From the sequence record PQ314493: a DNA stretch of 44,679 nt; one strand, given 5' to 3'. Below, piece by piece: positions 2,335 through 3,854 of this stretch; position 1 is the first letter of the stretch, and the number at the start of each line of letters is the position of its first letter. This stretch comes from Escherichia phage vB_EcoS_UALMA_PCEc3. The notes beneath the pieces were generated by a model that ran no database searches, had not been told where the DNA came from, and was given only the letters and a program-made list of their open reading frames with translations. The position numbers were made by a program, and so were the translations under genes.

Positions 2335-2643
2335 ATGAGAACATTGAGACAGATTTTGCACTGTTGCAAGAAGCATCATTATGTTTACTTTCGTGATATT
2401 AAATGGTTCGAGGAGGCTCATTGCAAGTATGGTTTTAAAACAAAGTTAAAATGTACAAAATGTATGCACGTTGCTAACAGCAAGATTGACATGATGATTT
2501 GCCGCAGCACACTTTACGAAATCGCATATTGGAAACTCGAGTCACTGAAATCAGAGAGGCGGGAACCAAAGGATCTGTTCGGATACCAGCCTAAAGAATA
2601 TCCGCACATTTGGGTGATTGGAAAACCACCAGTTAAACCGTAA
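2335..2643 (+). CDS. Cys/His-rich small protein (possible zinc-binding)
   Basis: track ORF 2311..2643; likely ATG at 2335 (MRTLRQILHCCKKHH...); multiple Cys/His. Confidence 0.4.
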   Translation: MRTLRQILHCCKKHHYVYFRDIKWFEEAHCKYGFKTKLKCTKCMHVANSKIDMMICRSTLYEIAYWKLESLKSERREPKDLFGYQPKEYPHIWVIGKPPVKP

Positions 2644-2657
2644 TTGTTAAAAAGAGC

Positions 2658-2686
2658 TTGCATCACTGACTGGAATTATCTAATAT
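2658..2686 (+). promoter_or_regulatory. sigma70-like promoter for tRNA locus (TTGCAT-17 nt-TAATAT)
   Basis: -35 TTGCAT 2658-2663, 17-nt spacer, -10 TAATAT 2681-2686. Confidence 0.5.
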
Positions 2687-2852
2687 TAACCAAGTAGACA
2701 AACGAGGCCACTAAGTGGCAACGGCGCACGGAGCGCAACTACTAAGTCCGTTGCTCATTAAGTAGCGTATGCGGCATTAAGACCTAGCGCAAATAGGCAG
2801 ATTAATCGGCTGTATCAGGCAGCCCCGGAGCCGTAACCGGGAATCATTAAAA

Positions 2853-2929
2853 GCTCTGCTAGCTCAACAGGACAGCAGCAACGACCTTCTAAGTCGTAGG
2901 TTACTGGTTCGAATCCAGTGCGGAGCGCC
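2853..2929 (+). tRNA. tRNA-Arg (anticodon TCT)
   Basis: 7-bp acceptor stem GCTCTGC/GCGGAGC, U8, D-loop with GG, anticodon stem acgac/gtcgt with loop cTTCTaa, T-arm actgg-TTCGAAT-ccagt, discriminator G and encoded CCA. Confidence 0.8.
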
Positions 2930-2936
2930 AAATTAA

Positions 2937-3038
2937 CGTCGCGTTGCTAATGTTGGCCAAAGGGTGGAGCTTATACCTCCATAAAGCAATCTCCAGATAA
3001 GAGATGTAACGCAGGTTCGATTCCTGCCGCGACGACCA
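2937..3038 (+). tRNA. atypical tRNA-like RNA (~99 nt + CCA; anticodon unresolved, candidates GAT or TAT)
   Basis: perfect 7-bp acceptor pairing cgtcgcg/cgcgacg, canonical T-arm gcagg-TTCGATT-cctgc, encoded CCA; ~25 extra nt relative to a standard tRNA. Confidence 0.35.
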
Positions 3039-3053
3039 ATAAAGGAGTTCATT

Positions 3054-3236
3054 ATGTGGGATGTGAAGTTGTCCATTCGCTTAATGGGCCGCTCGTGCAA
3101 GAATTGCACTCAAGATTATATCGCGTCAGTTGCCGCAATCAGCGCTGAGGATGCGGTAGCGAAAGTAAAGGATATGTCAGGCGCTGACCCTGACACCCAC
3201 AAATTCCTGGTAGCTTACGTTCGTGAGCAAAAGTAA
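3054..3236 (+). CDS. hypothetical protein (60 aa)
   Basis: ORF immediately after tRNA locus with RBS aaaggag. Confidence 0.45.
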   Translation: MWDVKLSIRLMGRSCKNCTQDYIASVAAISAEDAVAKVKDMSGADPDTHKFLVAYVREQK

Positions 3237-3280
3237 AAAGTGTTATACCCTCGTTAAGTTTCGTTTCTCTCGTTGTTTTT

Positions 3281-3305
3281 AGCCCTCGCTTGAGGGCTTT
3301 TTTTC
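3281..3305 (+). terminator. rho-independent terminator
   Basis: hairpin agccctcgcttgagggct followed by T-run. Confidence 0.6.
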
Positions 3306-3315
3306 GTCTGCAATA

Positions 3316-3324
3316 TGGTATAAT
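3316..3324 (+). promoter_or_regulatory. extended -10 promoter (TGgTATAAT) upstream of terminase genes
   Basis: TG at 3316-3317, TATAAT 3319-3324, RBS aaggagg then ATG 3348. Confidence 0.45.
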
Positions 3325-3347
3325 CTGACCTCAACAAAGGAGGATTT

Positions 3348-3854
3348 ATGAGCAAAGCAGCATTAAAGATGGGCGAGGGAAATTTCAAGGCGCTCTACAA
3401 CAAGAAGTATGGCGATATTGCTATGGTGGCAATCAACCGCAAGTACACACCTGAGGAAGTTTTCGATTTCGCAGTGAGATACTTCTCCTGGGCTGAGAGT
3501 GAGGCAATAAAAGCTATTGAGACGGCGGCATATCATGGCGTGGTTAGCGAGAACTTAGTGTACAAGCCGAGAGTGTTCACCCTAACGGGTTTGGCGCTCT
3601 TCATGGGTGTTAACATCAATAGATTCGCTCGCTGGCGTACTGAGGCTGGATACTCTGATGTGATGGAATTTATTGATAACGTAATCTACGAGCAAAAATA
3701 TCAACTTGGCGTTGCAGGTATCATCAACTCTACTATCGTTGGTAAAGAGCTTGGCATTGATAAGCCGCAGGAGATTAAGATTAGCAACAACTCTACAGCT
3801 AACGACGTTGATAGTATGAAGGAAGCGCTGGAGTCAGTGATTAGTAAGCTATAA
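3348..3854 (+). CDS. putative terminase small subunit
   Basis: 168-aa ORF immediately upstream of large terminase; position/size only. Confidence 0.45.
   Translation: MSKAALKMGEGNFKALYNKKYGDIAMVAINRKYTPEEVFDFAVRYFSWAESEAIKAIETAAYHGVVSENLVYKPRVFTLTGLALFMGVNINRFARWRTEAGYSDVMEFIDNVIYEQKYQLGVAGIINSTIVGKELGIDKPQEIKISNNSTANDVDSMKEALESVISKL

Follow-up and report, generated by a model that had tools for sequence, protein, structure and literature searches.

The window analyzed here is the whole 44,679-nucleotide (nt) stretch of DNA from Escherichia phage vB_EcoS_UALMA_PCEc3 (sequence record PQ314493), in which an earlier note, made from the letters alone, had pointed out an over-long transfer RNA (tRNA)-like element beside a tRNA-Arg(TCT) gene. 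The element lies on the plus strand at positions 2937 to 3038, measures 102 nt including an encoded CCA, and is a genuine gene of the tRNA family, termed here the two-headed tRNA-Ile gene. The gene is complete: the Rfam tRNA covariance model (RF00005) matches it over the full length of the model (1 to 71) with 39.4 bits, against a gathering score of 29, and with an E value of 5.6e-5 in the whole window and 1e-6 in a local search. An Infernal search against Rfam, one of the checks that the note had proposed, returned a tRNA above the cutoff; ARAGORN, another of them, did not call the 102-nt element when run on the window. The depositors of GenBank PP134917.1, of which more below, labeled the element tRNA-Ile, and a covariance model of its own family gives it 119.5 bits. 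At 102 nt, it falls outside the usual tRNA range of about 70 to 95 nt, and in place of a single anticodon arm it has two arms, each with 5 base pairs (bp) and a 7-nt loop. Other Rfam families were rejected, as searches of the whole window at the gathering threshold and of positions 2550 to 3350 at E values up to 1 returned tRNA alone, besides a subthreshold small RNA (sRNA) match on a terminator.

All parts of a tRNA can be followed along the plus strand. The 5' strand of the acceptor stem (CGTCGCG, 2937 to 2943) pairs at seven of seven positions with the 3' strand (CGCGACG, 3028 to 3034), as the note had it; the distance of about 99 nt that it gave between the strands is that from base 1 to the discriminator, the strands themselves being 84 nt apart. 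The discriminator A73 (3035) and the encoded CCA (3036 to 3038) follow. The canonical T arm was likewise found where it had been placed, at 3011 to 3027, with the strands GCAGG (3011 to 3015) and CCTGC (3023 to 3027) around the loop TTCGATT (3016 to 3022). Behind the 5' acceptor strand stands the block UUGCUAAUGUUGG (2944 to 2956), nearly unchanging among the 83 family sequences described below, with UUGCUAAURYUGG as its family consensus. It holds U8, U9, the D-stem 5' strand G10-C11-U12 (2946 to 2948), A13, A14, the R15-like G2952, and G18 G19 (2955 to 2956). The purine-rich joiner CCAAAGGG (2957 to 2964), which contains a first candidate for the D-stem 3' strand (AAGG), leads to hairpin 1 (2965 to 2981), an anticodon-type arm with the stem TGGAG/CTCCA and the loop CTTATAC, in which U33, the anticodon TAT (2972 to 2974), and A37 can be read. 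The linker TAAAGCA (2982 to 2988) carries a second, better-supported D-stem 3' strand, A23-G24-C25 (2985 to 2987), followed by A26 (2988). Hairpin 2 (2989 to 3005) is again an anticodon-type arm, with the stem ATCTC/GAGAT and the loop CAGATAA, in which A33 (2995) precedes GAT (2996 to 2998), A37, and A38. The 5-nt variable loop GTAAC (3006 to 3010) ends in C3010, a Y48-like partner of G2952.

Covarying helices and invariant loops

Relatives of the gene were collected with blastn and with three pattern scans of IMG/VR, each anchored on a different part of the molecule. They form a family of at least 83 distinct sequences on about 100 viral contigs, 101 to 105 nt long, with four of 121 to 124 nt. 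The sequences were aligned by our own parse, for which the loops served as anchors and the pairs did not, and in an 82-sequence model alignment, and the two alignments gave an agreeing picture. Pair counts in the following refer to 81 sequences, and counts for loops and ends refer to 83.

Changes on both sides of a pair with the pairing kept were seen at seven of seven acceptor pairs, four of five pairs in hairpin 1, five of five in hairpin 2, and three of five in the T stem. Double changes were found at 22 pairs, and the observed covariation score was reached in 0 of 500 shuffles. Overall, 97.3% of the cells were paired, versus 72% in column shuffles and 40 to 55% when the partners were slid. 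Pairing reached 99.8% in the acceptor stem, 99.8% in the T stem, and 99.3% in hairpin 2, and four stem pairs of hairpin 1 were 99 to 100% canonical, with three to five pair types each. The two internal stem-loops that had been considered possible are thus real, their stem positions covarying across the family. A mutual-information scan of all column pairs recovered the four helices and one pair of the 15:48 type, and found no further contact, including none for the purine-rich joiner. The 15:48-type pair corresponds to G2952:C3010 of the window, ranks first among pairs outside the helices, and covaries as R:Y in 81 of 81 sequences (A:U in 52, G:C in 29), a pattern like that of the R15:Y48 Levitt pair.

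The two loops are as constant as the stems are variable. The loop of hairpin 1 reads YUUAUAN in 83 of 83 sequences (CUUAUAA in 41 and CUUAUAC in 34), was unchanged also in 29 sequences retrieved by a pattern that left this loop free, and has the makeup of a textbook anticodon loop, with U33, the anticodon UAU, and A37. The loop of hairpin 2 reads YAGAUAA in 83 of 83 sequences, always with A33, and it too was unchanged in sequences retrieved by a pattern that left it free. We take this loop to match that of the major E. coli tRNA-Ile except for A33 in place of the near-universal U. A73 is present in 83 of 83 sequences, CCA in 81 of 83, and TTCGATT in 80 of 83, and the GG at G18G19 is invariant across the family. 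Chance and a pseudogene origin were ruled out by the family-wide covariation together with the invariant loops. Collectively, comparison of the family sequences establishes a dual-cloverleaf architecture with four covarying helices and invariant loops.

Competing partners for the D stem

The D-stem 5' strand G10-U12 has three mutually exclusive candidate partners. With the AGC just 5' of hairpin 2 (2985 to 2987), G10:C, C11:G, and U12:A are each paired in 81 of 81 sequences; U12:A23 itself stands in 79 of 81, and there is one double compensatory change, from U:A to C:G. The resulting cloverleaf, with hairpin 2 as the anticodon arm, is that of a canonical class I tRNA, with one nucleotide at position 26 and a 5-nt variable loop, and hairpin 1 and the 8-nt joiner form an insertion of 25 to 28 nt in the D loop after G18G19. 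The AAGG just 5' of hairpin 1 is the partner when the RNA is drawn as by Rfam and tRNAscan, which turns hairpin 2 into a giant variable arm; here C11:G is paired in 81 of 81 sequences and U12:A in 71, with a compensatory C:G in 2. A third partner is the GG itself, in a local D hairpin that shows no compensatory change and would pull G18G19 away from the elbow.

ARAGORN recognized 2 of the 83 intact sequences. In silico deletion of the joiner and hairpin 1 led it to call tRNA-Ile(gat) in 79 of 83, and deletion of the linker and hairpin 2 led it to call tRNA-Ile(tat) in 75 of 83. In the nearest-neighbor model, the energies of the two cloverleaves are almost equal, 0.5 kcal/mol apart on average. 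Because the two tandem arms each follow their own copy of the D-stem 3' strand, the gene holds two overlapping tRNA-Ile cloverleaves, and a unit made of A-A-G-N-N and a 17-nt anticodon-type arm looks tandemly duplicated, an appearance supported by the deletion test. In a single clade in which U12 has become C, both candidate partners have changed from A to G; this clade is the sole comparative hint that both D-stem pairings may matter.

The earlier note had offered a choice between an unusually long extra arm and an insertion of about 25 nt. This dichotomy was apt, since the RNA can be drawn both ways; the comparative data favor hairpin 2 in the anticodon-arm position, with hairpin 1 as the probable D-loop insertion. 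The note had missed that both hairpins are isoleucine anticodon-type arms (UAU and GAU), as well as A33, the candidate D-stem 3' strand in front of each hairpin, and the mobile family across phages. The sequences of 121 to 124 nt form a subfamily (loci L132, 9117 to 9240; L168, 4302 to 4423; L174, 496 to 617; L175, 6287 to 6407) in which the linker between the hairpins is 10 to 11 nt longer and a genuine long variable arm follows hairpin 2, so that three arms stand between the D stem and the T arm. A true variable arm after hairpin 2 fits the cloverleaf built on hairpin 2 better than the drawing with a giant variable arm.

Isoleucine identity elements

The identity set of the E. coli isoleucyl-tRNA synthetase (IleRS) consists of the discriminator, the anticodon, t6A37, C4-G69, the 12-23 pair, and C29-G41, and D-loop positions 16, 20, and 21 matter for its editing (PMC9976931). 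The discriminator A73 and the anticodon-loop determinants of hairpin 2, namely G34 (a place that lysidine can also fill), A35, U36, A37, and A38, are present in 83 of 83 sequences. In the window, the cloverleaf built on hairpin 2 also has all of the minor determinants, U12:A23, C29:G41, and C4:G69. Across the family, U12:A23 is found in the 79 of 81 sequences mentioned above, C29:G41 of hairpin 2 in 34 of 83, and C4:G69 in 17 of 83. C29:G41 is present in hairpin 2 of all isolated members from enterobacterial and Vibrio phages, with neighboring pairs varying. The anticodon of hairpin 1 has U34, which E. coli IleRS recognizes poorly, and tRNAs with a UAU anticodon are charged poorly by this enzyme (PMC3575796).

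A mobile family restricted to phages

A blastn search with the 116-nt region returned copies that are 75 to 98% identical in taxonomically unrelated phages. Carriers occur among E. coli and Klebsiella Drexlerviridae (Opt-79, Phleasolo, ESCO41, and ETEP102), among Vibrio phages (Pylo and River4, 128 kb; 12VC501, Schitoviridae; WD615), and among Pectobacterium phages (PhiM1, Autographiviridae; Arno162 and Wc4, Ounavirinae), and include Klebsiella phage KP13-26 (144 kb) and the Xanthomonas jumbo phage Xoo-sp13 (309 kb). A family covariance model built from 41 members gave members 72 to 125 bits, one per locus, with hundreds of ordinary tRNAs in those loci at 51 bits or below. Usually the family gene stands inside a tRNA array, where the CCA of a preceding tRNA directly adjoins it. 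Two IMG/VR scans for single-headed relatives, each combining the same D block with just one hairpin, gave 0 matches apiece.

A specific pattern found true members in 4 of 185,579 bacterial and archaeal species, represented by one genome each: a Sulfurovum metagenome-assembled genome (MAG), Gallibacterium faecale, Actinobacillus vicugnae, and a gammaproteobacterial MAG. The 5,426 complete E. coli genomes and 72,556 plasmids searched in a pattern scan held no family member. These counts, 4 in 185,579 species genomes and 0 in E. coli genomes and plasmids, rule out a host-derived gene or prophage cargo. The specific DNA pattern also produced false positives in Lachnospiraceae and Eubacterium genomes (loci L215, L221, L222, L223, L232, and L236), which share extended similarity and look like one conserved, probably protein-coding sequence.

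In the window, the gene and a 6-nt spacer make up a 108-nt presence/absence cassette (about 2932 to 3039, plus strand), which in the alignment is bounded by CCAA repeats and is missing from the close relatives SU57 and BEK2. Among four Phimunavirus phages, a tRNA gene was reported in PhiM1 only (PMC6115819), and papers on the PhiM1 group, this one included, list merely "a single tRNA-Ile." The family is thus essentially restricted to phages and has cassette-like mobility.

Genomic neighbors and codon context

The window is the genome of a 44.7-kb siphophage with 44% G+C, and its reverse complement is GenBank PP134917.1, "Pseudomonas phage PsgS01F." A query spanning positions 2600 to 3300 matched Escherichia phage vB_EcoS_CEB_EC3a at 98.6% identity over 2643 to 3300 and about 80 E. 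coli phages at 91 to 96% identity; SU57, BEK2, and BEK6 are classified as Drexlerviridae, Braunvirinae. Because of these identities to E. coli phages and of the G+C content, the host label of PP134917.1 (P. syringae pv. garcae) looks doubtful.

Six bases upstream of the two-headed gene ends the canonical tRNA-Arg(TCT) gene, which reads AGA. Its position, 2853 to 2930 on the plus strand, was given by ARAGORN and by Rfam (55.5 bits), one base beyond the end at 2929 in the earlier note. The promoter that the two RNAs had been proposed to share, TTGCAT-17-TAATAT (2658 to 2686, plus strand), is present in the sequence as a sigma-70-like site and may drive transcription of the tRNA operon. Relatives keep the position of this site, with a stronger TTGACT-17-TAGTAT at the aligned place in Opt-79; the site is weak, agreeing with 7 of 12 consensus positions, and was not called in a promoter scan of the window. 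The leader between this site and tRNA-Arg (2688 to 2852, 165 nt), which had been described as structured, is conserved in Braunvirinae but only weakly structured (fold z = -1.14), and a search of 2550 to 3350 at E values up to 1 gave no Rfam match to it. A leader hairpin at about 2706 to 2719 shows a compensatory change (GCCAC/GUGGC versus CCAUC/GAUGG), and the motif CCGUAACCG near 2831 to 2839 is kept without change as far away as Opt-79 and ETEP102, which are more distant. The tRNA pair is immediately followed by a small conserved open reading frame (ORF) of 60 codons (3054 to 3236, plus strand), annotated in GenBank as hypothetical and kept in relatives with or without the two-headed tRNA cassette. 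A strong intrinsic-terminator-like hairpin with a T run (3281 to 3298, plus strand) closes the unit after this ORF.

At 85 family loci, which together hold 526 ordinary tRNAs, tRNA-Arg(tct) was the commonest neighbor (33 of 85), and a canonical tRNA-Ile(gat) was present in 21 of 85, including those of WD615, Pylo, KP13-26, and Arno162. No canonical tRNA-Ile(tat) was found among the 526; the lone "tat" call by ARAGORN is an aberrant 89-nt gene. Among the small carriers, the gene stands alone in PhiM1, with tRNA-Arg(UCU) in the window, Opt-79, ETEP102, and ESCO41, with tRNA-Arg(UCU) and tRNA-Pro in 12VC501, and directly adjacent to a canonical tRNA-Ile(GAU) in WD615. Phages with near-complete tRNA sets (Pylo, KP13-26, and Arno162) carry tRNA-Ile(GAU) plus the family gene, which argues that the family fills an "Ile-UAU" slot instead of duplicating GAU decoding. 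ATA makes up 14% of the isoleucine codons and AGA 25% of the arginine codons in the ORFs of the window, and ATA and AGA are the two rarest sense codons in E. coli, at roughly 7% and 4%, respectively. The case for a role of the family gene in codon supply is circumstantial. Blast clustering of the ORFs within 3 kb of the 85 loci found no conserved neighboring protein; the largest cluster spans 11 of the 85 loci and looks like antisense translation of tRNA. With no conserved protein beside it, the RNA must therefore work with host machinery.

Other unusual tRNA genes were seen in the carriers. Viral tRNA arrays that carry the family hold tRNA-like genes of 89 to 91 nt resembling class II tRNAs (L137, 14087 to 14175; L194, 7450 to 7540, minus strand), whose acceptor stems are imperfect and whose anticodon loops, CCUAUGA and GUUAUAG, are odd; ARAGORN calls one of these genes "tRNA-Ile(tat)." KP13-26 (locus L155, 9757 to 9831) has a tRNA with a CTA anticodon, "Pyl" according to ARAGORN and the record, which would be of the amber-suppressor type. 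The CAU tRNAs of large carriers (L154, 3869 to 3945 and 4788 to 4864; L155, 15604 to 15764; L156, 3841 to 3914 and 4827 to 4903) have unusual loops (UUCAUAA, UUCAUGC, UUCAUAC, UUCAUAU, and CUCAUUA), and inspection gave no assignment to Met, fMet, or Ile2.

A proposed division of labor and its alternatives

We tentatively favor a reading in which the element encodes a working, non-canonical isoleucine tRNA whose GAU arm would serve charging and whose UAU arm would serve AUA decoding. Host IleRS would recognize and charge the RNA via the GAU arm (hairpin 2), since UAU tRNAs are charged poorly, and the invariant A33 would block the U-turn needed for decoding by that arm. The UAU arm (hairpin 1) would read the rare codon AUA on the ribosome, with no lysidine synthetase needed, and the D stem would probably have to change partners as the RNA passes from one cloverleaf to the other. 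The adjoining tRNA-Arg(UCU) and the two-headed gene would together serve the two rarest codons of enterobacterial hosts, which the phage uses in excess. Aminoacylation with isoleucine, the division of labor between the arms, and the conformational switch are features that we infer from sequence. That the RNA is a bistable "two-in-one" tRNA, which would separate identity from decoding by a strand swap in the D stem and act as an AUA decoder that any bacterial IleRS could charge, independent of the host and of TilS, is possible but doubtful.

Several observations weigh against this division of labor. The best-supported cloverleaf places hairpin 1 at the elbow, out of reach of the decoding center, so that a conformational switch is needed, and the comparative support for such a switch appears to amount to one lineage's worth. 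The AAGG partner leaves a G10:purine mismatch (pair 10:25) in 81 of 81 sequences and 8 mismatches at 12:23, and the local D hairpin with GG is the structure preferred by RNAalifold and by nearest-neighbor energies. The loop-closing pair of hairpin 1 is mismatched in 47 of 81 sequences, mostly as C·A, an uncommon feature in a decoding arm. If blocking decoding were the sole need, any non-U at position 33 should serve, so that the strict A33 would be unaccounted for. Furthermore, E. coli ribosomes let an unmodified UAU anticodon read AUG as well (PMC3575796).

The alternatives differ mainly in which arm decodes, if either does. The position of hairpin 1 in the best-supported secondary structure, where decoding is impossible, would equally suit a non-decoding mimic of tRNA-Ile (a decoy, sponge, or regulator) with the hairpin-2 cloverleaf and hairpin 1 displayed at the elbow. 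Its target would be a host factor for isoleucine tRNAs, bound without consumption, such as an anticodon nuclease or acetyltransferase toxin of abortive infection, IleRS, TilS, or another; the invariant A33, the one departure from a perfect tRNA-Ile(GAU) loop, would protect the GAU loop from cleavage and keep it from decoding, and the UAU loop would mimic a minor tRNA-Ile. The often mismatched closing pair of hairpin 1, the normal tRNA-Ile(GAU) that carriers often have as well, and an occurrence that is phage-only and mobile across unrelated phages, as for anti-defense genes, are consistent with a decoy. We nevertheless regard it as unlikely. The encoded CCA, A73, and near-complete IleRS identity set suggest an RNA meant for charging, the minimal sets of small carriers (Arg-UCU or Ile-GAU plus the gene) look like codon supplementation, U34 and not C34 in hairpin 1 makes a poor mimic of a lysidine tRNA, and stoichiometric trapping of an enzyme is inefficient; we also know of no tRNA-Ile-specific defense system in these hosts. 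Further still from the proposed scheme is a recoding or mischarging tRNA, whose extra arm would redirect charging to the leucyl-tRNA synthetase (LeuRS), the seryl-tRNA synthetase (SerRS), or another, so that AUA would be read as another amino acid. A73 is also the LeuRS discriminator. A precedent exists in the nematode nev-tRNAs, which have a UAU anticodon and are reported to be charged with leucine (PMC3333845). The extra arm of the family carries determinants for Ile and not for Ser or Leu, both anticodons are isoleucine anticodons, and recoding would damage the phage's own genes, which use ATA at 14% of isoleucine codons; recoding is thus highly improbable.

Two simpler tRNAs can also be drawn. 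The alignment of the element by Rfam and the label tRNA-Ile in GenBank records would fit a tRNA-Ile(UAU) that always uses hairpin 1, with its textbook decoding loop, as the anticodon arm, and has hairpin 2 as an oversized arm in the variable region, outside anticodon recognition by IleRS and serving, e.g., folding, stability, modification, or tuning to EF-Tu and the ribosome. That the ribosome can accommodate an extra arm in this region is seen from class II tRNAs. The D stem would then consist of two constant pairs and the G10:purine mismatch in all 81 sequences, the conserved AGC complementary to G10-U12 would be left unexplained, and the 121- to 124-nt subfamily has a true long variable arm besides hairpin 2. 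An arm that is merely structural is not expected to keep the IleRS determinants GAUAA in 83 of 83 sequences, and poor charging of UAU tRNAs by E. coli IleRS would apply in full, which makes such a tRNA distinctly unlikely. Conversely, a tRNA-Ile(GAU) that decodes AUC and AUU by hairpin 2 would follow the best-supported cloverleaf, with hairpin 1 as a non-decoding D-loop appendage that might, e.g., protect against nucleases, alter IleRS editing, or be recognized by processing enzymes. The acceptor and T stems resemble those of canonical phage tRNA-Ile(GAU) genes, and the IleRS editing determinants of the D loop lie at the site of the insertion (PMC9976931). This possibility has to contend with the invariant A33 in hairpin 2 and with the normal tRNA-Ile(GAU) that carriers frequently encode in addition, directly adjacent in WD615. 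Nearly all decoding tRNAs have U33. We also expect a bulky arm at the elbow to disturb ribosomal contacts, and the invariant UAU loop would be left unexplained; we therefore hold a GAU decoder to be very unlikely.

Should the division of labor between the GAU and UAU arms prove true, the gene would be a portable, RNA-only answer of phages to the AUA problem (rejection of UAU by host IleRS and dependence on the host for lysidine), and it would offer synthetic biology a template for codon reassignment without synthetase engineering. A decoy, in turn, would point to an unrecognized host attack on isoleucine tRNAs. ARAGORN, a standard finder, misses the gene, and annotators who do notice it label it an ordinary tRNA-Ile, so that it is misread in censuses of phage tRNAs and in analyses of codon usage.

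Comparison with known tRNAs

In a full-text search, in which subscription journals were thinly covered, no published tRNA with two anticodon arms, no anticodon arm inserted in a D loop, and no atypical phage tRNA-Ile was found, and a preprint on a "mirror tRNA" proved unrelated to the two-headed tRNA. A family of phage tRNA-Ile with two anticodon-type arms has thus apparently not been described before. Insertions of roughly 25 nt in the D-loop region are also known from archaeal tRNA introns at non-canonical sites. Such introns are flanked by bulge-helix-bulge motifs and are removed by a splicing endonuclease that is absent from bacteria, and the invariant anticodon-like loop in the inserted hairpin argues for retention and not for splicing. 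An insertion of 25 to 28 nt is also far too short for a group I intron.

The closest likeness is to the canonical bacterial and phage tRNA-Ile(GAU), exemplified by the major E. coli tRNA-Ile and by the copies in Pylo, KP13-26, Arno162, and WD615. The family has in common with it the 7-bp acceptor stem, A73, and CCA, the pairing of G10-C11-U12 with A23-G24-C25, the 5-nt variable loop, the T arm, and the loop N-N-G-A-U-A-A, and the acceptor and T-stem sequences of some members also recur in phage tRNA-Ile(GAU) genes. Unlike the canonical tRNA, every family member has A33, and about 25 to 28 extra nt after G18G19 form a second arm. Class II tRNAs (Leu, Ser, and bacterial Tyr) have an extra stem-loop between the anticodon and T arms, as does the element in its Rfam drawing. 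Their extra arm has a loop of 3 to 5 nt, starts directly after position 44/45, and takes the place of the short variable loop, whereas that of the element has 5 bp and a 7-nt loop. Before the arm of the element stands a linker of 6 to 7 nt that can pair with the D-stem 5' strand, and after it an ordinary variable loop of 5 nt with Y48 as its last base. The nematode nev-tRNA-Ile(UAU) is likewise reported to combine UAU with an extra arm (PMC3333845).

With respect to AUA, tRNA-Ile2 (CAU converted to lysidine; the host ileX/ileY type and the CAU genes of phages) does the job presumed for the family, decoding of this rare codon, and also occurs in phage tRNA clusters. It needs host TilS and has C34, whereas hairpin 1 has U34 in every family member and is accompanied by a second arm. 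The tRNA-Ile(UAU) of Mycoplasma mobile, an organism without lysidine synthetase, offers an unmodified-type UAU with U33 and A37 for AUA, as does hairpin 1, but it combines a normal cloverleaf with an adapted IleRS (Arg865), whereas the family would face the ordinary host IleRS and has the extra GAU arm in the tRNA itself (PMC3575796). Two anticodon-type arms, invariant across unrelated phages of several bacterial orders, would constitute a new architectural class of tRNA. To our knowledge, in all known systems the synthetase, where it uses the anticodon, and the ribosome read the same anticodon arm.

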